This document shows, one piece after another, positions 1-33,154 of a DNA stretch of 42,851 nt (the first letter of the stretch is position 1; each line of letters begins with the position of its first letter). The stretch comes from a virus (lineage: Duplodnaviria; Heunggongvirae; Uroviricota; Caudoviricetes): IMG/VR virus record IMGVR_UViG_2875722834_000006. The stretch is one strand, 5' to 3'. The position numbers were made by a program, and so were the translations under genes. The notes beneath the pieces were generated by a model. It saw only the letters and a list, made by a program, of their open reading frames with translations, had not been told where the DNA came from and did not search any database.

Positions 1-321
1 CTACATTACAGGCGATTTATCGTCTTTAACTTGGTTAAGTGTATGTGTAAGAACGCCGTGTACCGTTACGTCATTCAGAGCTTCCCCTTCTATCGCTTCA
101 CCATCTTCAGTGATCAGCGCGTGGCCCATTAGCTTCACGAACTGGTTTCTCCCGTCCATGCTAACCAGCAGCGTATCCCCTCCTTCTGGCTTCAGACTGA
201 CGTTAATAACGGCCCAGCCGCATGAAGTTTCAATAACCCGGCAGTTGTTATCTACACCGCAGATAACATCTATCGTCATGCGCTGCTCCTGGTAATCCAT
301 GGCTGGCGATGGAAATCCCAT
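1..321 (-). CDS. Hypothetical protein (106 aa), no family recognised
   Basis: Complete ORF; GGAGG-like RBS about 8 nt upstream of ATG at 321; stop at window edge. Confidence 0.4.
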   Translation of the reverse strand: MGFPSPAMDYQEQRMTIDVICGVDNNCRVIETSCGWAVINVSLKPEGGDTLLVSMDGRNQFVKLMGHALITEDGEAIEGEALNDVTVHGVLTHTLNQVKDDKSPVM

Positions 322-407
322 TAGAAAACCCTCCCCATGTTTCGCAGGATCCAGTATCGATTCTCACTTCCGTTTGTCGTCTTATCGGCGAAGTCCGGCT
401 GGTACCG

Positions 408-560
408 CTAGATCCATGAATTTGCATCCGCCTGGCTGAAATGCCAGTGCCTCTCCTGCAGTTCAGCGATAAATTTGTCTGTATGCAGGCAGAGATAGCC
501 CTTCGGGTTTTGCTGTATGACCGCAACAAAAGCAGCACGAATATCCGGTTGACGAGGCAT
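408..560 (-). CDS. Hypothetical small protein (50 aa; longer 78-aa alternative start at 644)
   Basis: ATG at 560 preceded by GAGGG RBS (568-572); sits immediately beside the LexA box. Confidence 0.3.
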   Translation of the reverse strand: MPRQPDIRAAFVAVIQQNPKGYLCLHTDKFIAELQERHWHFSQADANSWI

Positions 561-581
561 GTGCGCACCCTCACTCGCTAA

Positions 582-610
582 TTGACTGTATACACATACA
601 GTAGTATTTT
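582..610 (+). promoter_or_regulatory. SOS (LexA) box CTGTATACACATACAG (586-601) overlapping a sigma70-like promoter (TTGACT 582-587, TATTTT 605-610) upstream of the dinI-like gene
   Basis: Exact CTGT-N8-ACAG LexA consensus; 17-bp spacer between -35 and -10 hexamers; lies between divergent genes. Confidence 0.6.
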
Positions 611-660
611 TATAAAAACAGATCAAGCACAGGCAATTTTTCACTAATGAGAGGATCGGT

Positions 661-927
661 ATGTTTGTTGAACTCGTTTATGACAAGCGTAATGTTGAGG
701 GGCTCGAGGGGGCCAGAGAGATCATACTGGCCGAGCTGACGAAGCGGGTGCACCAGATTTTCCCTGATGCCGAAGTGAAGGTGAAGCCGATGCAGGCGAA
801 CGGCTTGAATAGCGATGCCAGCAAAAGCGATCGTGAAAAACTGAACCACATGCTGGAGGAAATGTTTGAAGAATCCGATATGTGGTTGGTTTCTGAGTTC
901 CCGACTGTTCGCCAAGCCGGGCTGTAA
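661..927 (+). CDS. dinI: DinI-family SOS-inducible protein
   Basis: 88-aa product aligns by eye with E. coli DinI (conserved FPD motif and acidic C-terminus ending in W-VSE); RBS GAGAGGA upstream; LexA box upstream. Confidence 0.75.
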   Translation: MFVELVYDKRNVEGLEGAREIILAELTKRVHQIFPDAEVKVKPMQANGLNSDASKSDREKLNHMLEEMFEESDMWLVSEFPTVRQAGL

Positions 928-970
928 AATGGTTCAGGCTGCCAGCTTCAATATTCACTGGCGGCCTGCA

Positions 971-1531
971 TTATGTCTTACCACTACCTACCGGAAATTT
1001 TCGGTAGAGTGTTGAAACCCCTACGTCGTAAATTATTGCCACACGCTGGCGAGATTCCCCTGCTGAGATCAATCTCCCTGCCTGCGCCCATTGTTCATCC
1101 GTTAATTTGGGCCTGCGACCGCCGAACCGCCCTTTTGCTCGCGCAGCTGCTAAACCCGCCCGGGTGCGTTCAACAATGAGCTCTCTTTCCATTTCTGCCA
1201 AAGCCCCCATAACATGAAAGAAGAATCGGCCCATCGGCGTAGACGTGTCTATGCTGTCGGTCAGGCTGCGAAAATTAATGCCCCGCTCTCGCAGCTCCTC
1301 CACAAGAACGACAAGATGCCGCATGCTTCTACCGAGCCGATCGAGTTTCCAGACCACCAGCGTGTCTCCCTCCGACAAGATACGGAGTACCTTTTTGAGC
1401 CCCGGCCTCTCCGATGTCTTTCCGCTTATCTTATCTTCAAAAATCAGTTCACATTCTGCGCTATCGAGCGCATTTCTCTGTAATGCGGTGTTCTGGTCAT
1501 TTGTTGACACTCTCACGTAACCAATAAGCAT
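971..1531 (-). CDS. Serine recombinase, DNA invertase of Hin/Gin/Pin/Cin family
   Basis: 186-aa product starting MLIGYVRVSTNDQ with LVVWKLDRLGRS and C-terminal HTH (GVSTLYR), near-identical motif order to Hin; start moved to internal ATG at 1531. Confidence 0.85.
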   Translation of the reverse strand: MLIGYVRVSTNDQNTALQRNALDSAECELIFEDKISGKTSERPGLKKVLRILSEGDTLVVWKLDRLGRSMRHLVVLVEELRERGINFRSLTDSIDTSTPMGRFFFHVMGALAEMERELIVERTRAGLAAARAKGRFGGRRPKLTDEQWAQAGRLISAGESRQRVAIIYDVGVSTLYRKFPVGSGKT

Positions 1532-1600
1532 TGTTTTATCCCCTGCAAAAAGCAGAAAGCATGCCACTAGTGAGCAGAATGGTCATTATCAAAAACGTTC

Positions 1601-2017
1601 CTATATTGGCATCTCAGGCCAGACAGGGTTGGCTGAGTCAACCTTTGTCAATGCATAGCGATATTTCTGCCACGCCGTGAGTTTTGGCTTATCTGCATCA
1701 TCAATATAGTCACCATCAAAAGCATCCTTAAGTGGGTCAATAATATGTGTTGCATATGCGATAAGAGATGATTTTTTTGACACCGCATCTGCTTCAAGTT
1801 CTTCTGGCGTACGTGGTGGTATTTCACCCCATGTTGGCATGCCGTCATTGCCTGCGATGCGCACTAATCCATCAACGGTTCGATCCTGAGTGAACGCAGT
1901 AAATTGCTCAGTAGTTACGTCAATCAGGTCAGACAGATCCCAACCCGCATCTTCATAATTCCCCAGCTCAGCAGTACGGAAAAATGCATTGTTCTTAGCG
2001 CTGTATTGATATGTCAT
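1601..2017 (-). CDS. tfa: Tail fibre assembly protein (P2 gpG / Mu U-like chaperone)
   Basis: C-terminus VDSANPVWPEMPI matches the conserved tail-fibre-assembly C-terminal motif; start taken at MTYQYSAKNNAFF (ATG 2015-2017) directly after the fibre stop. Confidence 0.75.
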   Translation of the reverse strand: MTYQYSAKNNAFFRTAELGNYEDAGWDLSDLIDVTTEQFTAFTQDRTVDGLVRIAGNDGMPTWGEIPPRTPEELEADAVSKKSSLIAYATHIIDPLKDAFDGDYIDDADKPKLTAWQKYRYALTKVDSANPVWPEMPI

Positions 2018-2018
2018 C

Positions 2019-2936
2019 TTATTTTCCCCAGGCAATGTAATAAACATCTTCACTGAATGGTTGGATACCACCAGAGCCACCCCAGCACCGACCATCAAAA
2101 CCAAAACCCGCCTTATTAAGGTACGTGACATAGGGAGAGAACATCCAGGCTTGGCCAATCATTACGCCGAATGCAATGGCAGTACATTCGTTGGGGAACG
2201 GGGTATCAAATAATTTATCACCGGACAGAGAGACCTTGCCGGTTCTTACATGGCCTGTTGCTGCATTGCCCATCCCAAGATTATTTCTGGCCGTGGCTGC
2301 ATCGTTCGCACCAGTACCGCCTTGCTGAACCCCCAATGGTACGAATTTTGCGCCGTCAAAAAGCCCCCACTGATTATCTTCGCGTGCTGTAAAATATGCA
2401 GTTTTTTTATCGTCGCAATAAATTACCGTTTCACCTGCCCGCTGCTCAACTCTGCCAAGGCCAAGATTAGTCCTTGCTCCTGCTGCATTACCTGCACCTG
2501 TTCCACCCTGATTAATACCCAAGGGGATAAAACCTTTCGTAGTGTCATAAATGCCCCACTGACCATCAATCCTGATGGCAAGATAAGAGGAGTGATCGTC
2601 CCCGGAATAAATTCTCGTTTCGTTATTTAACTGCTCCACCCTGTCAATTCCAAGGTTTGTGAGAGCCGTAGAAATCGCCGCTGCACCATCTGATTTGATA
2701 TCGGCAAATGGGTTTGCACGGCTCAGTGTGAGTTTTTGAATGGCTTTTAAAACCTGAGTCATATCGTTAATGTCGAGCGCCAATCCTGCTGACTCTACGA
2801 TATGCGCTAACTCTTCCTGCATGGCATTAAACGCTGCTGCCCGCAGCCTCGTTGCGGCAATACCACCAGCAACACTTCCATCAGTATATTTGCCATCCTG
2901 CGTTGCAGTGGCTTCGACTTGCCCGATTCGGAGCAT
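2019..2936 (-). CDS. Tail fibre protein (305 aa)
   Basis: Two internal copies of the tail-fibre repeat (P)LG(I/V)xQGGTGA..AA.AR.NLG; GAGGA RBS upstream of ATG at 2936; followed by tfa. Confidence 0.8.
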   Translation of the reverse strand: MLRIGQVEATATQDGKYTDGSVAGGIAATRLRAAAFNAMQEELAHIVESAGLALDINDMTQVLKAIQKLTLSRANPFADIKSDGAAAISTALTNLGIDRVEQLNNETRIYSGDDHSSYLAIRIDGQWGIYDTTKGFIPLGINQGGTGAGNAAGARTNLGLGRVEQRAGETVIYCDDKKTAYFTAREDNQWGLFDGAKFVPLGVQQGGTGANDAATARNNLGMGNAATGHVRTGKVSLSGDKLFDTPFPNECTAIAFGVMIGQAWMFSPYVTYLNKAGFGFDGRCWGGSGGIQPFSEDVYYIAWGK

Positions 2937-2987
2937 AGTTAATCCTCACTTAGTGTTAAGCGATAAAATCAGAGGGGGAAATATCAG

Positions 2988-3581
2988 TTATGAATAATTG
3001 AAAATGATGTTCAGATGGGATGGGGCAATTTTGTTGATTGAACACTCCAGTTGTTTATTGCCCCACGATGCGAGCGGATCTCCGCAGTAGGACGCGCCAG
3101 CAAGCGAATACTTGATCGTTGTTTGTGGCGCATTTATCCGCCAGGTAAATGGCCACTCGTCACCGTTAAGCGCATCACCGCATACTGACATGCCACTCAT
3201 AGCGGGCCGGAACTGTGTGATAGTGATGGTATAACCAAGAGCTGCAGCCACCCGGATGTAATAATCGCGGTTCAGGCCGCCGGTGCTGATTAACTTTGCC
3301 ACCACGGCGCGCTGGCGATCGCTGACGCCACCGGATTCACCAATCGCACAATCATCTGGTAACCCCAGAGAGCTTTCCCATTCTGACAACATTACCGTCG
3401 CTGTAGGGGGAAAAGCACCAGTAATCAGGCTTTGCGCATCGTTGTCAGAACGCTGAAACGCGCTGCCCAGTGCCCGTAATACCGCAGCCTGTACCGTTCT
3501 TTGCGACCGGGGCCACGCCCTGCCCGTCGGTAGCAGCGCACCAAGCGCACCGGCATAATCATTTTTTGAAAAGAGGCTCAT
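2988..3581 (-). CDS. Tail protein, YmfQ / Mu gp48-like (baseplate or fibre attachment)
   Basis: 197-aa product with N-terminal ALLPTGRAW motif typical of this family; position between baseplate J and tail fibre. Confidence 0.6.
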   Translation of the reverse strand: MSLFSKNDYAGALGALLPTGRAWPRSQRTVQAAVLRALGSAFQRSDNDAQSLITGAFPPTATVMLSEWESSLGLPDDCAIGESGGVSDRQRAVVAKLISTGGLNRDYYIRVAAALGYTITITQFRPAMSGMSVCGDALNGDEWPFTWRINAPQTTIKYSLAGASYCGDPLASWGNKQLECSINKIAPSHLNIIFNYS

Positions 3582-4720
3582 ACAAAATTCACCCCGCCAA
3601 GCACCGGAATTTCGCCAACAGCAAAGGTGATATTGGCCGTCGGAGAGTTAAGAATATAGCCCGTCGTGCCGCTAACACCGCCGATACTCCCGTTAATATC
3701 AGAGAGGTAAACTTTCCCGGAACCATCAGGGTTAGCTTCATCAAAAAACAGCGCCGTCAGCGCGTCTTTTATCCCCTGAACTGTGGTGCTGTCGGCATTT
3801 TTGATCCCAGAGATTTCAATATTGATGACTTTCTTGATCGGGGAACATACGAAAACAATGGCAGTGTCTGTCTGCTGCGGATAGATGTGGTCGGCGACAG
3901 CGAGCTGGTCTCCGGTGGCTTTAACAGCCCCCCAGTCCTCAAGTTGGGATATTCCGTCGGTACCGACCGGAAACCCACCATTGTCATTCCGATCACACAT
4001 GATATACACGCCAACGGTCCCGGCCCCGTTCAGACGCCGCTTTACCCACGCGCGGGTGACGCCCGAAACCTCAAGCGCCCATTTTTTATAATCGGCGTCG
4101 CTTCCACCCTGAGGCGGATTCTGCCATGCCAGCAAGCCACGACTGCGAAAATCCTCTTCCGTTTCAATATCGGCTCCGCCGGTCGCAGCGGACAGTAACG
4201 TTACCTGTGGATCCACGCCAGCAATATTCGCGTCCAGGGTCATTATGGTCCCGGCATCAGCGTTACCGCGCGCGCCTCCACCCGTTACATCACTGGTAAT
4301 ATCCGGCAGTATGGCCGTCACCGCGACGATACCAAATCCATCTGCCTGAATTTTAAGATCTGCATCCGTCCGGTACTGGTATCCGTCCCCGCGGTTAATG
4401 ATCGAGCCAACAGGGATAATACAGTCAACACTGCCACTAGCCTGTACCGCAGGCGACTTCGCCGCTGCAGCTGGTTTTCTGAATACCTGCTTAAGGGCCA
4501 TCCACCCGGCGAGATACTCATCGGTAGAGGTAAACGGGTTTGTCTGCAGGGCAATATAGTCAAGGTAGGCGTAATGCAGATGCCCCATCCCCGCATCCAT
4601 GTCAGCCAGTACCTTCAGGTTCGCGAAGCGCAGGAGCGCACCAACATCCTCAAGCTCCGCCTGCATAAATTTCCGGTTTCCGTCGCGGAGTTCGCTCAGC
4701 GTCGGTCGTTTAAACGGCAT
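3578..4720 (-). CDS. Baseplate J-like protein (Mu gp47 / P2 gpJ family)
   Basis: 380-aa product; start moved to MPFKRPTLSELRD (ATG at 4720) abutting upstream gene stop; gene order. Confidence 0.75.
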   Translation of the reverse strand: MPFKRPTLSELRDGNRKFMQAELEDVGALLRFANLKVLADMDAGMGHLHYAYLDYIALQTNPFTSTDEYLAGWMALKQVFRKPAAAAKSPAVQASGSVDCIIPVGSIINRGDGYQYRTDADLKIQADGFGIVAVTAILPDITSDVTGGGARGNADAGTIMTLDANIAGVDPQVTLLSAATGGADIETEEDFRSRGLLAWQNPPQGGSDADYKKWALEVSGVTRAWVKRRLNGAGTVGVYIMCDRNDNGGFPVGTDGISQLEDWGAVKATGDQLAVADHIYPQQTDTAIVFVCSPIKKVINIEISGIKNADSTTVQGIKDALTALFFDEANPDGSGKVYLSDINGSIGGVSGTTGYILNSPTANITFAVGEIPVLGGVNFV

Positions 4721-4721
4721 A

Positions 4722-5159
4722 TTAACGTTGCTCCCATATCCAGTAAAACCTGAATTCCTGCCAGTCCTTCCCCGGTGCCTGATAGCGGATAATGAGATTG
4801 AGCCGGTCAGGCAGGACGATCCTTGCAACAGGAATAACCTCGCTGACAACGCCATCAACCTTTAACCAGTTGAGCGCTTCACTCGAGTATTCCTCCGCTT
4901 TTTTTGCTACATCCGGGGTCAGTTTTTTCCGCCGTAGCAGCCACAGCCGGGATCCCAGTTGGGATTCCTCCCCGGAATCCCCCCACCAGCCGCGGCGATC
5001 GCTATCCTCATAATCATCGTCAGCGCGCGCCAGCCTGTCGGTAAACAGGCTGTCCAGTATTGCAGTCTGTAAATCGTTCCCCGTGGTGAGTTCACCCAGC
5101 CCTTTCTGCCAGTCAGCAAACATCTCATCCACATTCCAGAATGAAGCGATGTCACTCAT
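4722..5159 (-). CDS. Baseplate protein, Mu gp46-like (gp25/GPW-like wedge)
   Basis: 145-aa product with RRGWWGD and SRLWLL motifs; position between V-like and J-like genes. Confidence 0.65.
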   Translation of the reverse strand: MSDIASFWNVDEMFADWQKGLGELTTGNDLQTAILDSLFTDRLARADDDYEDSDRRGWWGDSGEESQLGSRLWLLRRKKLTPDVAKKAEEYSSEALNWLKVDGVVSEVIPVARIVLPDRLNLIIRYQAPGKDWQEFRFYWIWEQR

Positions 5160-5740
5160 GTCACCTGATCCTCTGTTTTTTGGCTGCGGATATTGTCATT
5201 GCCACTCTGGGCATTTTTAACCACATGATCATGGTCATTATGTGCATCCCGCAGCTCTTTCAGTGTTCGGGTATTGGTTTCACAGTTATCAACAATGTCA
5301 CCCGTGCACCTCAGGATCGGGGTATTTGCAAGGATCCCCTGGCTGGCATTGATGGTCACGTTAGTGGCGTTATTGACCTCAACATTCTGGCCCTTTGCAT
5401 CCAGGAAGATCCCCTTCTCCGTCAGGAGAATATTAAGGCCCCACTGGTTATACATGACCGTTTCGCCCGCTTTCAGGCCTGTATGACGGAACCCCTGATG
5501 GTTGGACGCAATTACCACCGCGCTGGAACGATCACCGCCAATAAAAGCCAGAACCACGTCAGTCCCTGACGGCAGGCCGGATGAAAAGCCAAATTCTGCC
5601 ATCCGCGGAGCGCTGGCCACCTCCAGCGGAGTCTGGTACTGGATAGACTGCACCACCCCACCATCTTTCATAGCCGTGATCCGGCCAATCCCCAGCATGC
5701 CGGCGATCCTGGTCGCTGCATGTTTAAATAGTTGCTTCAT
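5156..5740 (-). CDS. Baseplate assembly protein V-like (Mu gp45; spike)
   Basis: 194-aa product, gene order and overlapping start/stop with neighbours. Confidence 0.65.
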   Translation of the reverse strand: MKQLFKHAATRIAGMLGIGRITAMKDGGVVQSIQYQTPLEVASAPRMAEFGFSSGLPSGTDVVLAFIGGDRSSAVVIASNHQGFRHTGLKAGETVMYNQWGLNILLTEKGIFLDAKGQNVEVNNATNVTINASQGILANTPILRCTGDIVDNCETNTRTLKELRDAHNDHDHVVKNAQSGNDNIRSQKTEDQVT

Positions 5741-24587: not shown

Positions 24588-25640
24588 TTATTCCCCTGTT
24601 AACGCCCTTATTTCCCCCACCGTCTGGCTAAACCTGTCCTTCTCGAGTTCAACGCCGATAGCCTGGCGGCCAAGTTCCAGCGCGATTTTCACGGTCGAAC
24701 CGGACCCCATAAAGAAATCAGCCACCACATCACCAGGCTTACTGCTGGCGTTGATGATCTGCCGCAACATGTCAGCGGGTTTTTCGCATGGGTGTTTACC
24801 TGGGTAAAACTGAACGGGTTTATGTGTCCAGACGTCGGTATAAGGAACGGATACGGAAACAGAGAAATGCCGCCGAAGCGATTTGTACTCTTCGAGCAGC
24901 TCTGAATACTTGCGATTTAACGAATGCCACATAGCCACCAGCTGGTGGTGTGGTGTTGCCAGTTCGCCGTTCTGGTGCTTTTCGATGGCTACCTGCGTGA
25001 AAAGGGACTGAAGCTTCCGGTAGTCTGATTCATTCGGTAATTGCCACTGGCTACCGCTGAACCAGTGAGACACCATGTTCTTCTTTCCAGTCGCATCGGC
25101 TATTTGTTTTGAGGTTATGCCAAGCGCTTCACGTGCATCCCGGAAATAAGAAATTAGGGGAGTCATTACATGCTGCTTCAGCTCGCTTCCCTTCTCAGCG
25201 TACCCGTCGCTCTTTGGTTTATACGGCCCCTGGTAATGCTCAGCGAACAGGATGCGCTCTGTTGCAGGGAAGTAAGAGCGCAGGCTCTCTTTATTACAGC
25301 CATTCCAGCGGCCCGACGGTTTAGCCCAGATGATGTGGTTCAGGACGTTGAACCGCTCACGCATCATGATCTCAATGTCTGCCGCCAGACGGTGACCTGA
25401 GAAAAGATAAAGACTGCCGGCAGGTTTAAGCACTCGCCAGAATTGTGCGAGGCACATATCAAGCCAGCGAAGATAATCCTCATCCCCTTTCCATTGATTG
25501 TCCCAGCCGTTGGGTTTCACTTTGAAGTACGGCGGATCCGTGACTATCAGGTCAATGAAGTTATCAGGGAGAGTTGCGATGTATTGCAGGCTATCAGCGT
25601 TGACTAACTCAACACTGTTTATATTTACAGTATTTTTCAT
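24588..25640 (-). CDS. DNA N6-adenine (or N4-cytosine) methyltransferase, beta class
   Basis: DPPY motif near N-terminus (VTDPPYF) and AdoMet motif FxGxG near C-terminus (DFFMGSGST). Confidence 0.8.
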   Translation of the reverse strand: MKNTVNINSVELVNADSLQYIATLPDNFIDLIVTDPPYFKVKPNGWDNQWKGDEDYLRWLDMCLAQFWRVLKPAGSLYLFSGHRLAADIEIMMRERFNVLNHIIWAKPSGRWNGCNKESLRSYFPATERILFAEHYQGPYKPKSDGYAEKGSELKQHVMTPLISYFRDAREALGITSKQIADATGKKNMVSHWFSGSQWQLPNESDYRKLQSLFTQVAIEKHQNGELATPHHQLVAMWHSLNRKYSELLEEYKSLRRHFSVSVSVPYTDVWTHKPVQFYPGKHPCEKPADMLRQIINASSKPGDVVADFFMGSGSTVKIALELGRQAIGVELEKDRFSQTVGEIRALTGE

Positions 25641-25858: not shown

Positions 25859-26758
25859 TTACGCGTTTCCAGGAGGGACATGCCAGACTCTTCGGCCATC
25901 CTCATGGTTCTCGATAATCTTGGCTGCTGTACTGCCACCAAAAGTGTGCATATAGCTATGATGTATCGTTAACACAATATCTTGTAATGCCTGATCTGCT
26001 TCCATCGGTATGATTTTCAAACCAATTTGGCTAGCTTTATCACTGTGAATATGACGTGCATGAGCAAAAGTTGAACTGTGGTTATTCAGGCTTGAACAAA
26101 TAGCTTCAGCCTTTTGCTGGGCATCTGGATCCCCATCAAACATACCAGTAATTAGCCATTCACTGACAATTGTTGTTGCCCATTGGATTGCCTTTTCACA
26201 CTCACCAATGAACGTCGGATTGAGTTTAGACAGTGTAAATTGCCAATACGCAGCAGTCGCAGGGTTTTTAATAATATCTTGCATAGCCTTCTGCGCTTCT
26301 TCAATCACGCCATGTGCTGGCACGCCACCGATTTGGGGATCGAAAGGACCGATATTTGATTGTTTCCCCATGATGATTTCTTTTGCACAACAAGCCAACA
26401 TAGTCCCTGCTGACATAGATATCATGGGGACAAAAGCACGGATATCGTTACCGAACTTAGCTCTCAAGTAATAACCTATCGATTCTAAGGCGGCGATATC
26501 CCCACCAGGTGTATGCAAAATGAGATCAAGCCCCTTCGTGGCATCGAGCCCATGAACCGCTGTCATGAATCCATTTTTATCATCATCAGACATAGTGCAT
26601 AAATGCGAGCTATTCTGAAGGAACCCCGAGTAGTACGCAATGACGTTACGTCCGGTCATCTGCGACATCTCTTTGATATATTTGCTTCTTACTGTGTCTA
26701 GGGGGCTTTTTTGGGCGAGGACTGCAACCTCGCCCATAACATGATTCCAATTAGGCAT
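25859..26758 (-). CDS. Clp-fold serine peptidase (SDH / S49-S14-like family), cargo gene
   Basis: LILHTPGGDIAA and MISMSAGTMLA motifs resemble ClpP/SppA fold; low GC; separate from head protease. Confidence 0.55.
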   Translation of the reverse strand: MPNWNHVMGEVAVLAQKSPLDTVRSKYIKEMSQMTGRNVIAYYSGFLQNSSHLCTMSDDDKNGFMTAVHGLDATKGLDLILHTPGGDIAALESIGYYLRAKFGNDIRAFVPMISMSAGTMLACCAKEIIMGKQSNIGPFDPQIGGVPAHGVIEEAQKAMQDIIKNPATAAYWQFTLSKLNPTFIGECEKAIQWATTIVSEWLITGMFDGDPDAQQKAEAICSSLNNHSSTFAHARHIHSDKASQIGLKIIPMEADQALQDIVLTIHHSYMHTFGGSTAAKIIENHEDGRRVWHVPPGNA

Positions 26759-29889: not shown

Positions 29890-31827
29890 TCAGGCGGCTG
29901 CACCCGCCTTTTGATTTGCACATAATTCAGGAAGATTTGCTTCTACCAGCGCACGAGCGAACGGCGGCGGTACTGCGTTACCACAGCGCGCTACCTGCTT
30001 GTCTTTGGCGTAACGATTGCCGCGATAGTCCTGATCGATAACGTAGCCGTCAGGGAAGCCCTGCGCCTTATAAAGCTCATGCGGTTGCAGCATGCGCATT
30101 CCGATATCGACGATCTGGTACTTAACCCCCTCGATCGTCACCAGCCATTCATCCTCGCTATCACCGCAGTAGGTTTCGAGGAATGTCCGGACCTCGCCAA
30201 CGTGCTGGCCACCAGCGGTAATCGTCGGCATAGGTGTATCCATGGTCTGACCGTCGCGGCAGGTTCCGCGCAGCTTCACCAGGTGCGACGCAACTACCGC
30301 GTGGTGATCAACAGTAGTGACTGAGTGGGCAGGCTCATCCATACCAACACCCGGCCCCGTGTAATTCCCACCATAGTGCTTCGCCAGGAACGCGCTCACC
30401 GTTGCAAACTTATTACCACCAGCAGTGACCGTGCCGAGCGGGTTATTCAGTTGAAGAACACGCGGTTCTTGCCCTGGGCGTTCGCCGTACCCCATCTGGA
30501 TCAGTGTTGGAGTTACCAGCTGCGACTTACCGCCACCACCTGCAGTAATCGTCGCACTCGGTTCGTCAGCCCTGTGCCCAACACTGGCTCCAAACTGGCG
30601 GGCGATGACCGGCGCAACCACGCACGCGCGGGACTGCTTGAGGATTGTATGAGCGGGTTTATCCAGCGGGCGCGGCTTTGCCTGGTACTCACTGCCGCCA
30701 TTGCCAGCCAGGAACGGTGTCAGGGCGGCCTCAACTACGCCAAGCGCATGCCCATTCCCGCCCGGGCGCGCCGACGTACCAGCGGTGACAGTTGGTACCG
30801 GCTCGGTCACTGGCTGCCCGGTGGCCCCGGTGCGGAATTTAGTAAGATGCGGTACCGCCAGTGCGTAGCCATGCTTTTTAGTGATGGTCTGCAATGGCTC
30901 TAACAACGATTGCCCGCGGAAACAGTCATAACCTCCTTTCGTCGTGGTGTGGTTACACTTCACGATGAAAGGTGATGCGCTTTCGATAACAAAGCGCTGG
31001 ATGCCGCGCGCGATACGTTTGAGCGTATTTTCCGCCAGCGGCTTTTTGCGGTCGAAGATGGACCGGGCCGGGATATTCCAGTCAATGCACTCCGCCGCGG
31101 TACGCCATGGCGCCAGCTTGCCGCTTTGTACTTCCAGTGATTTTGGATCCCCATGAGTCGCTTCAGGCCAATGAATCTTGCGGCCGTCACAGCGCATGAC
31201 CATGAAGAAACGCTTTCTGATCGTCGGCGCGCCGTAGTCACATGCGCGCAGCTCCCGATAATCAACCTCATAACCAAGCCCGGCGATCAGCTGTTGCGCC
31301 TGCTGGCCGTGCGGCTCAATGGCAAGGAATTCACAAACCTCAGCCAGCGCAGGGTGATTCGCCGCGATCCCCGTCGACAGCATGCCGACAAATGCCTCGA
31401 ATGTTTCGCCAGCACGCTCAGGATCTGGGCGTAATTCTTCATCCAGCAGCGGGCCCCATGTCTTAAACTCTTCGACGTTCTCCAGCATCATGACGCGGGG
31501 ACGTACTGCCAGCGCCCAGCGCAGGACAATCCACGCCAGCCCGCGAATCTCTTTCTTAACCGGCTTAGCGCCCTTCGCCTTGGAAAAGTGGCGGCAGTCA
31601 GGGCTAAACCAGGCCAGACCGACAGGTTTACCGCTGGTGGCTGCGCTTGGGTCAACGTCAAACACCGACTCGCAATAATGCAGCGTGTCAGGGTGATTCG
31701 TCTTATGCATCGCAATAGCGTTTTCGTCGTGGTTGATAGCGATATCCACGCTACGCCCGATCGCCAGTTCAATGCCGGTACTCGCGCCGCCGCCACCAGC
31801 AAAGTTATCAACGATAATTTCACGCAT
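29890..31827 (-). CDS. DNA (cytosine-5)-methyltransferase with extended, internally repeated variable region
   Basis: Motif I FAGGGG, PC motif (SPDCRHFS), ENV (MLENVEEF), motif VIII (YGAPTIRKRFFMV), motif X (GNAVPPP); four T(I/V)TAGG-containing modules between VIII and IX. Confidence 0.85.
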   Translation of the reverse strand: MREIIVDNFAGGGGASTGIELAIGRSVDIAINHDENAIAMHKTNHPDTLHYCESVFDVDPSAATSGKPVGLAWFSPDCRHFSKAKGAKPVKKEIRGLAWIVLRWALAVRPRVMMLENVEEFKTWGPLLDEELRPDPERAGETFEAFVGMLSTGIAANHPALAEVCEFLAIEPHGQQAQQLIAGLGYEVDYRELRACDYGAPTIRKRFFMVMRCDGRKIHWPEATHGDPKSLEVQSGKLAPWRTAAECIDWNIPARSIFDRKKPLAENTLKRIARGIQRFVIESASPFIVKCNHTTTKGGYDCFRGQSLLEPLQTITKKHGYALAVPHLTKFRTGATGQPVTEPVPTVTAGTSARPGGNGHALGVVEAALTPFLAGNGGSEYQAKPRPLDKPAHTILKQSRACVVAPVIARQFGASVGHRADEPSATITAGGGGKSQLVTPTLIQMGYGERPGQEPRVLQLNNPLGTVTAGGNKFATVSAFLAKHYGGNYTGPGVGMDEPAHSVTTVDHHAVVASHLVKLRGTCRDGQTMDTPMPTITAGGQHVGEVRTFLETYCGDSEDEWLVTIEGVKYQIVDIGMRMLQPHELYKAQGFPDGYVIDQDYRGNRYAKDKQVARCGNAVPPPFARALVEANLPELCANQKAGAAA

Positions 31828-33154
31828 TGACGGCCCCCTGCATGCTGTTGAAGAGACCACCAGCGGTCGTGATAATTTCACTCGTCGGCATACGTTCGAG
31901 CCACAGCTGGTTGATATTGGCTTTCAGCTTGTTCTGCTGCGAAACAGGTAGAGCGTCAGCCCCTTCAATCTGGTTAAACACCAGTCCAACCTCAAGAGGC
32001 CAAACGCGCGATTCGTTTAACGCCTTGTCCTTTGATTCCTGCGTCTCACGGACATGGGCGCGGATCCCCCGAATATTTGACCATTTGGCTTTATCCAGGC
32101 TTTCCATGGTCGCGATGAATTCACTGTGGTTAATGCCGTATTCTTTCGCAGACTCAACGGCAACCGTGCGTAACCGCTCTGACATGTCTTGTTTCACGTC
32201 ATCGCTATCAAAGGGCAATGTTTCCAGCCATGCATTAACACCCACCAGGATGCTCTCGCTGATCAGCTTTTTCGCTCTGTCGATCGTCAGCGGTGAAACA
32301 TTGGTAAATTCAGGGTTTTCCAGAGAGTCGGCAGCCCAGGTATGACCAAACTTTGACTCGCTGAAGGTGTACTCGTCTTTCTTGCCGAACGCCGCGACAA
32401 CACAGGCCCAAGCCTCTACACCGCTGGTTTCCAGAATGGCTTTTTGGGTTAATGGCAGTTCTGCCTCTGATTTCTCCGGCACTACCTCAGCGTCCAGCTC
32501 CGGCGCCGCATCAGTTTGCGTTCTTCCCACGGCAAATTGGGCCAGCGACATCGCAGCACGGCCTTTGGCCTCCAGGTCGGTGCGGTTGATGTAACTGAAA
32601 CGCTCACCCCGCCATGTTTTGTCGAAGACCACGATAGCGCCAGCAAAAAATGCGCTGGTGGGCTGCTGCTTTTCGTCTTTCGGCACGAACCATGTAGGAA
32701 GATCGAAACCAATTCGGCCACGGATGAATGTGACGTGATCTGCCTCTACCGGCCACCACGTTTCACTCGTCGCAGACTTAATGAGAAAAACGTACCGACC
32801 ACCCTTTTCTCGCATGGCCATAGCGTGGTTAATGATGTGGGTCATTCCGGTAACGGCCTGCTTGTCGTGGTACTGAGAGCGGCTGTAAGGCGGGTTGCCA
32901 AACCCGGCACCACCGAGTTCTGCCAGCCGCTCTGACCAATCCTGCATCAGGGCATTATCTTCAGCCGTGTACCATGCTGGGCACTTCGCGTTGCTGTCGT
33001 CGGCAAAAAGGTCCAACACCAGAGGGCCGAACATCGCATTGATCCCCCAAAACAACAGATCCGGAGTGCGCCATTGATCACCGACCTCTTTCAACTCGTG
33101 TGCTGGTTTTGAACGGAGTTCAGCCAGTGCACGGCAGTATTTATTTTCCATCAT
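31820..33154 (-). CDS. Phage-type DNA N6-adenine methyltransferase (Dam family) with about 250-aa C-terminal extension of unknown function
   Basis: N-terminal DQWRTPDLLF and NPPYS motifs characteristic of phage Dam family; long uncharacterised C-terminal half. Confidence 0.7.
   Translation of the reverse strand: MMENKYCRALAELRSKPAHELKEVGDQWRTPDLLFWGINAMFGPLVLDLFADDSNAKCPAWYTAEDNALMQDWSERLAELGGAGFGNPPYSRSQYHDKQAVTGMTHIINHAMAMREKGGRYVFLIKSATSETWWPVEADHVTFIRGRIGFDLPTWFVPKDEKQQPTSAFFAGAIVVFDKTWRGERFSYINRTDLEAKGRAAMSLAQFAVGRTQTDAAPELDAEVVPEKSEAELPLTQKAILETSGVEAWACVVAAFGKKDEYTFSESKFGHTWAADSLENPEFTNVSPLTIDRAKKLISESILVGVNAWLETLPFDSDDVKQDMSERLRTVAVESAKEYGINHSEFIATMESLDKAKWSNIRGIRAHVRETQESKDKALNESRVWPLEVGLVFNQIEGADALPVSQQNKLKANINQLWLERMPTSEIITTAGGLFNSMQGAVNA

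Follow-up and report, generated by a model that had tools for sequence, protein, structure and literature searches.

The invertible G segment of phage Mu, the C segment of P1 and the Hin system of Salmonella are served by invertases of one recombinase family (Gin, Cin and Hin), whose 26-bp crossover site splits the fibre gene into a constant and a variable part and whose gene adjoins one of the sites. The P segment of e14 in Escherichia coli K-12, which is inverted by Pin, follows the order ymfQ-stfP-tfaP-tfaE-stfE'-pinE and carries the sites pixL and pixR. Here, we describe a fibre locus in a stretch of 42,851 nucleotides (the window; IMG/VR record IMGVR_UViG_2875722834_000006), a prophage with a contractile tail plus lambda-like head genes, which shares with e14 the backbone order baseplate J, YmfQ/gp48, fibre, chaperone and invertase. 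In this locus, an intact invertase gene of the Pin/Gin (Din) family stands beside a single cassette formed by the end of one fibre gene and its assembly (chaperone) gene; in the cryptic prophage Rac (stfR-tfaR-pinR) an invertase gene likewise adjoins a single fibre and assembly pair. The locus behaves like the molecular scar of a switch and not like a switch. At a probability of about 0.6, we favour the reading that the cassette was replaced by the invertase through quasi-sites (sequences that only partly resemble its real sites), leaving the fibre locked ON and the invertase orphaned, perhaps with activity in trans.

The same prophage is present in E. coli ECONIH4, where it adjoins tRNA-Pro/yejM. 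Both sequences are 99.9-100% identical on either side of the cassette (2 mismatches over 1..1599 of the window and 0 over 2650..5332), whereas the interval between these matched flanks measures 1,814 bp in ECONIH4 and 1,050 bp in the window. The ECONIH4 interval is e14-like: one strand encodes a fibre tip plus chaperone and the opposite strand another such pair, whose fibre tip lacks a promoter. The sites of this interval are complete and pix-like (TTCTCCCAAACC AA GGTTTGTGAGAG and TTATCAAAAACG TT GGTTTGGGAGAA), while the window retains their outer halves only. Homology stops at 1599 and restarts at 2650, which places the breakpoints at the core dinucleotide of either site, and the inner half-sites have both been exchanged along with the segment. 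This comparison shows that the replacement of the invertible segment between the cores was recent and precise. Taking into account that the two-cassette forms of the prophage are far commoner than the window form (two fibre variants on about 30 contigs each, versus a window fibre cluster of 2), the single cassette is the derived state in this lineage. An assembly artefact is excluded by the recurrence of the same arrangement in further independent assemblies; the first 6 kb of the window are 100% identical to a contig of the E. coli assembly GCA_011008635.1. The lack of a second fibre and tfa pair, which the original prediction had reported for the surroundings of the invertase, extends to all 42,851 bases, where tblastn returned the known genes as self-matches and no second fibre, assembly or invertase homologue.

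Half-sites were scored with a matrix built from 19 distinct half-sites of published hix, gix, cix, pix, mix and bix sites (PMC3241671, Table 3). The half-site that the original prediction had noticed between the invertase and tfa genes is the top Din half-site of the window: TTATCAAAAACG at 1586..1597, the outer half of a site that will be called B, scores 14.4 bits and ranks first among ~85,700 positions on both strands, which is more than chance. Its partner, which had been suspected either within the fibre gene or outside the window, lies in the former place, at 2640-2665 (site A), on the junction between the constant and variable fibre parts and with an inverted AA core. The weight-matrix search that had been advised for the inverted partner recovered its outer half (CTCTCACAAACC on the minus strand, 2654..2665; 11.6 bits, rank 4) but no complete 26-bp site. 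The inner half of B (CCTATATTGGCA, 1600-1611), where the assembly gene ends with its last codons and stop, scores -1.4 bits and that of A (CCTGTCAATTCC, 2640-2651) -4.1 bits; about 8% of random window 12-mers score as high as the inner halves when the matrix is trained on good halves only. At both sites, the consensus is matched only in the half that points away from the segment, and the inner halves are random-looking. Both cores are AA in inverted orientation (on the plus strand ..CC AA GG.. at A and ..CG TT CC.. at B), as inversion requires, and across site A, after residue 95, the fibre frame reads ..A-L-T-N-L-G-I-D...

A full-site matrix trained without gix and pix finds exactly the two known sites in each of the controls, which score 29.8 and 29.8 bits in Mu (next best 6.3), 29.5 and 22.2 bits in e14 (next best 11.0), and 26.5 and 26.1 bits in ECONIH4 (next best 10.4). 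The window contains no real full site: its top score, 10.4 bits, is at chance level, and the matrix scan detected no complete 26-bp crossover site in 42.8 kb. Neither was an inverted repeat pairing sites A and B found in the window; the top inverted repeat of ECONIH4 consists of exactly its two sites (24 nt, 92% complementary). A partner site elsewhere in the window was also considered and rejected, a strong isolated half (26263-26274) being without a partner half.

To locate the cassette elsewhere, the exact sequence of the assembly protein and three close variants, a query blind to orientation, was combined with DNA searches, and this yielded 32 further loci with both junctions; an assembly-protein scan of species-representative genomes returned no relatives. 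The 1,052-nt cassette (1600-2651) is 92-100% identical in these 32 loci. The 300 nt beyond A are mostly unalignable, and the 300 nt beyond B are unalignable, 75-82% identical (other invertase genes) or identical. Besides the e14/Mu-like backbone of the window, the cassette is found in a second Mu-like backbone, in a myovirus with Sheath_initiator and Phage_Wedge1 and in several P2-like prophages, in which it corresponds to the end of gene H plus gene G, the invertase lying between G and neighbouring tail genes in some and being absent in others. Seven different outer halves on the A side and ten different outer sequences on the B side were counted among the loci, and those on the A side, coding as they do for the conserved x-N-L motif, are all good half-sites. 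Invariance across five backgrounds with an invertase amounts to 92-100% in the cassette interior and to 44-70% in the adjoining invertase gene, the change falling at 1598/1599; by these values, the cassette is younger than the divergence of the invertases.

The right-hand junction can be placed closely by means of locus L004, which differs from the window by two bases over 1122-2656 and diverges at 2657, confining the right-hand crossover to 2650-2656, that is, to seven bases including the core. On the other side, the same AA is followed, in loci without an invertase, by CCTTTG(A/G)(A/T)AGAA, a weak half-site of 2-5 bits, and by a terminator. This CCTTTG..AGAA sequence is probably the native 3' flank of the cassette and could have been used as a quasi-site. 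In the P2-like locus L058, the flanks, regarded as native quasi-sites, read TTCTCAAAAACC-TT-GGAATTGACAGG and TGCCAATATAGG-AA-CCTTTGAAAGAA.

The invertase gene reported in the original prediction at 971..1531 was confirmed as an intact minus-strand gene, and its product shows what is expected of a Din invertase: catalytic and HTH_7 domains, a length of 186 amino acids (aa) and close identity to characterised enzymes (87% to PinE, 74% to Gin, 40% to PinR and 99.5% to the ECONIH4 invertase, which serves a full switch). Its gene is one base (1405) apart from that of ECONIH4, its N-terminus, MLIGYVRVSTNDQ, is the same as in PinE and Gin from residue 2 (Gin being annotated with a GTG start), and the exact protein occurs on 288 contigs. 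No inactivating mutation was found in the window invertase, and no complete inverted-repeat pair present in both orientations accompanies it. A crude motif scan located Fis-like 15-mers at nt 94 and 131 of the gene (94 and 129 in gin, 94 and 131 in pinE) and did not find the expected 48-bp enhancer spacing.

In related loci the enzyme has decayed. The invertase of L021 and L025 (3492-4058) carries the nonsense codon E146*, which removes the DNA-binding domain, with the same cassette adjacent, and in L030-L033 the invertase gene is gone, the outer half-site CGTTTACGAAAA being kept and followed by the same DinI gene. These loci show that the invertase is dispensable beside the cassette. In the window, the intact enzyme would be without a proper substrate in cis and in this sense functionally orphaned. 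By analogy with other prophages, its targets in trans may be Din sites of co-resident prophages: PinQ, from the cryptic prophage Qin, inverts the e14 segment in trans (PMC12529663), and in EC958 the enzyme of another prophage apparently inverts the Phi4 segment.

The sequence of events that we propose begins with the tail end of an e14-like E. coli prophage, whose Pin-type invertible segment would have carried two alternative fibre tips. The interval between its crossover dinucleotides was then swapped for one foreign cassette, made up of a fibre tip and its assembly chaperone. The most likely agent would be the invertase itself, for whose pair of real sites a P2-type fibre operon would have supplied two quasi-sites as recombination partners, one of them the conserved ..xNL|G.. 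motif in the fibre gene and the other just past the stop codon of the assembly gene. The expected products are hybrid sites, with the resident consensus half outside and a random-looking half inside, which would be too weak for detectable flipping. Since such hybrid sites would recombine too rarely, the fibre would be effectively locked ON; flipping would merely truncate the fibre after residue 95. The orphan invertase could later decay, as in the related lineages, or find its substrates in trans. A wider proposal, for which we would put the odds somewhat below even, is that the cassette may be a plug-in host-range module, spreading among unrelated myovirus tail modules by means of the resident Din invertase, at the cores of real and NLG-encoded quasi-sites.

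Several points weigh against the invertase as the author of this exchange or against a locked fibre. Intermolecular or quasi-site recombination is disfavoured for Fis-dependent invertases, so that the proposed exchange must be rare and amplified by selection. The mosaic between L004 and the window has its left boundary near 1122, within the invertase gene, a position suggestive of homologous recombination, and the loci without an invertase share 12 further bases past the core. It has to be considered as well that natural functional sites may have one random-looking half (under the good-halves-only matrix, the scores are -3.6 bits for hixR-left, -3.0 to 1.4 bits for some mix halves, and -5.4 and -5.2 bits for the window inner halves), so that weak site activity is compatible with the sequence alone. 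Moreover, the evidence on orientation given below comes from assemblies, in which minority orientations below roughly 10% are invisible.

A further point is raised by L044 (GCA_049063925.1, 4975-6485), a P2-like prophage that shares 99.5-100% identity in its flanks with L029, a single-cassette locus. The sequence TTTTCAAAAACG-TT-GGAATTGACAGG stands beside the L044 invertase gene and leads into an inverted first repeat unit of this fibre-tip type, exactly the junction that inversion would create. The silent frame breaks at a third hybrid site (TTCTCCGAAATC TT CGTCCAAGAGCG), and the expressed tip is a different, glycine-rich one. This junction indicates that the weak A-type half took part in an inversion-type event at least once; L044 would thus fit rare quasi-site-like activity and supports the invertase as the probable maker of the junctions. 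Two kinds of fusion appear to point the same way. In L014-L017 (~3772-3977 in L014), the constant fibre part known from the window is joined at the core to CGTTTCGAACAG, with a stop six codons on, before a converging assembly gene (four contigs were retrieved of the ten carrying this fusion, and all four break within 170 nt), and in L018 (3611-3915) this constant part continues in frame into the C-terminal 95 aa of a Caudo_TAP protein.

An exchange without any invertase is the first alternative to be weighed. The cassette could have been moved by homologous (general or phage-encoded) or microhomology recombination at the NLG motif and in the invertase gene, its coincidence with the crossover sites reflecting only that these are the conserved islands. 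The L004 boundary within the conserved invertase gene and the sequence shared past the core by invertase-less loci would be accounted for in this way, and the NLG motif does recur within fibres as a module boundary. However, the sequence shared by donor and recipient at site A is at most 7 bp, core included, and at site B identity shifts within 1-2 bp of the core across several unrelated flanks of invertase-bearing loci. Such stretches are too short for RecA-type recombination and their position too reproducible for random illegitimate joining, which makes this explanation unlikely.

The second alternative is a working single-cassette ON/OFF switch, in which the invertase would flip 1600-2651, so that some lysogens would yield fibre-less or truncated-fibre particles, or in which orientation would control something else. 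Several features of the locus are in keeping with such a switch: the sites are inverted, with identical AA cores and one strong half each, the invertase is intact and nearly identical to the enzyme of a full switch, hixR and several mix sites likewise have one non-consensus half, and L044 has the predicted invertase-side inverted junction for this cassette start type. Against it stands orientation itself. Sites A and B lie ~1,043 nt apart on one strand in the window and in all 32 loci, none of which is inverted (0/32) and ~18 of which have an invertase within 150 nt. From the sites, the junctions expected after inversion are A' = TGCCAATATAGG-AA-GGTTTGTGAGAG and B' = TTATCAAAAACG-TT-GGAATTGACAGG. 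The computed inverted form has no match covering at least 80% in 5,426 complete E. coli genomes, and a 151-nt junction query gave no spanning match in E. coli genomes. The A' pattern has 0 matches in viral and metagenome collections, the normal junction having one in each. A 20-mer of the invertase-side inverted junction has 0 matches in the viral collection and 11 in species-representative genomes, all in unrelated taxa and close to an estimated chance expectation. Three Logan contigs (L026-L028) run unbroken from far upstream across site A into the cassette.

The predicted product of the OFF state also speaks against a switch, as it would consist of fibre residues 1-95 plus LPILASQARQGWLSQPLSMHSDISATP, 26 junk residues. 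This fusion protein was not found in the protein database, where the same 95 residues occur at 100% identity with many other C-termini; a 40-aa query with the OFF tail gave no candidates, a negative that is not trusted, since its 13 fibre residues should have matched known proteins. To this must be added the loss or truncation of the invertase in several lineages that have the same cassette. As a control, homologous two-cassette segments beside the same invertase are found in both orientations among isolates (L001 and L034 versus L038-L043); the control rests on these homologous segments, which are 86-90% identical, and on the literature, and none of the complete genomes has the exact flipped form of the ECONIH4 segment. 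In E. coli EC958, such segments are found at ~50:50 within one culture (PMC4134206). The cassette described here shows no orientation polymorphism. Complete sites, two alternative coding ends and both orientations, which characterise a Din switch, are lacking from the locus, and we consider a working switch very improbable.

The fossil switch put forward in the original prediction holds in so far as the fibre looks locked (no inverted locus, no OFF protein, and invertase decay elsewhere), and fails as an account of how a single cassette came about, one of two cassettes not having been lost but the whole interval replaced by an unrelated cassette. Simple deletion, by which the invertase-proximal cassette of two would have been lost and one original left, can appeal to the two-cassette sister prophage and to ABWA45, in which one assembly gene of the pair is already truncated, and is nevertheless the least probable explanation, given that the remaining cassette has no detectable similarity to either sister cassette, that both inner half-sites and not just the invertase-adjacent one have changed, and that unrelated backbones, among them P2-like ones without any invertase, contain this very cassette with the same ends.

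The features of the locus are collected in Table 1.

Table 1. Genes, fibre parts and hybrid crossover sites at the fibre locus of the window.
Feature	Position	Strand	Basis or remarks
DinI gene	661-927	+	Downstream of invertase; Pfam and open reading frame (ORF) calls
Serine DNA invertase, Pin/Gin (Din) family, 186 aa, intact	971..1531	-	Pfam Resolvase 3.6e-50 and HTH_7 1.9e-14
Site B, hybrid crossover site	1586..1611		TTATCAAAAACG TT CCTATATTGGCA (plus strand); outer half 1586-1597, core 1598-1599, inner half 1600-1611
Tail-fibre assembly (chaperone) gene, 138 aa, within the single cassette	1601..2017	-	Caudo_TAP PF02413 1.8e-18
Fibre gene, 305 aa	2019..2936	-	Translation
Variable receptor-binding fibre part, ~aa 96/97-305	2019..2651	-	Two ~65-aa units each ending in NLG motif, then tip domain
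Site A, hybrid crossover site within the fibre gene	2640..2665		CCTGTCAATTCC AA GGTTTGTGAGAG (plus strand); inner half 2640-2651, core 2652-2653, outer half 2654-2665
Constant N-terminal fibre part, aa 1-95/96	2652..2936	-	95 residues at 100% identity fused to many C-termini
Mu gp48 / e14 YmfQ-like baseplate wedge protein, backbone gene upstream of fibre	2988..3581	-	Pfam Phage_Mu_Gp48 1.2e-32
Baseplate J	3578-4720	-	Backbone gene, left end of window

The constant N-terminal part of the fibre presumably attaches to the baseplate, and in all of the sequences read ..ALTNL|G marks where it joins the variable part, which is present in only 26 protein clusters. The tandem ~65-aa units (two in the window, 2019-2650) each end in GGTGA..A..AR.NLG(L/M)G. 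The fibre is 291, 305 or 354 aa long in relatives, and one cassette falls short by 96 nt; the number of units therefore varies, with the NLG motifs acting as module boundaries. In every context read, the assembly gene lies downstream of the fibre gene on the same strand; in the window it starts 2 nt past the fibre stop codon, so that both the domain and the position after the fibre are those of a Caudo_TAP gene. The 90% cluster of the assembly protein has 86 members. An ORF of 49 aa (window 1531-1680, plus strand), antisense to the end of the assembly gene, spans site B, and its ATG (1580-1582) would come in frame with the fibre tip upon inversion; relatives do not conserve this ATG (L007 has ACG and L009 lacks it), so that it is probably coincidental.

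Regarding the neighbouring genes, DinI trails the invertase in several prophage backgrounds and is retained in L031-L032 despite the deletion of the invertase. Two small ORFs at the end of the prophage (window 1-569) adjoin tRNA-Pro/yejM in ECONIH4, where one of them is a pseudogene. Farther away, this one prophage carries three DNA methyltransferase genes, all on the minus strand: one of the N6_N4 type with an HTH_3-like insert (24588-25640), one of 663 aa whose C5 DNA_methylase match is confined to its N-terminal part (29890-31881), and one of 444 aa whose Dam family match is confined to the first 200 aa (31820-33154).

The question of how tail-fibre host-range segments pass from one phage to an unrelated one dates from the early 1990s and has stayed open, and earlier evidence for a route through invertase sites was indirect. 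The locus described here is a clean natural experiment in this respect, and it makes the exchange hypothesis testable by a simple recombination assay. If the cassette were indeed a plug-in module, the capture and exchange of fibre tips would be an evolutionarily important job of phage invertases, beyond flipping, and each capture at a quasi-site would lock a new tip, leaving the invertase free to decay or to work in trans, as PinQ does. For annotation, it follows that an intact invertase beside a fibre gene does not by itself imply a phase-variable host range, and an orphan invertase of this kind may remain able to rearrange co-resident prophages.

Among known systems, e14 is the one whose sites resemble those of the window, whose outer halves are similar to pixL and pixR (CTCTCACAAACC versus CTCTCGAAAACC and TTATCAAAAACG versus TTTTCATAAACG), with the AA core in common. 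The window differs from e14 in having one cassette and not two, the opposed second pair being missing, in lacking both a flanking inverted repeat and the inner half-sites (TTCTCCCAAACC in e14 and ECONIH4), and in that no orientation polymorphism was found. In Mu, P1 and Hin, both of the sites are full or nearly so and there are two alternative coding ends (a promoter in the case of Hin), whereas in the window there is no alternative and inversion would only destroy the fibre gene. Rac was considered as a close analogue and rejected: PinR is 40% identical, its gene is convergent to tfaR and no Din-type half-sites were found in the Rac region, while the window enzyme is of the true Pin/Gin type and stands beside recognisable halves of its own sites.

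Sandmeier reportedly proposed in 1994 that host-range segments are exchanged by way of the invertase sites at their boundaries, and Iida and Hiestand-Nauer are said to have described in 1987 the choice of quasi-sites during Cin-mediated inversion, which would depend on a shared core dinucleotide. In comparison with these ideas, the event can here be read at base resolution, near-identical sister prophages differing only between the cores, and the same cassette is found both with its presumed native flanks and with several captured ones. What is new is thus a natural example at base resolution, together with a recurring architecture of a single cassette between hybrid sites; the concept itself is Sandmeier's.

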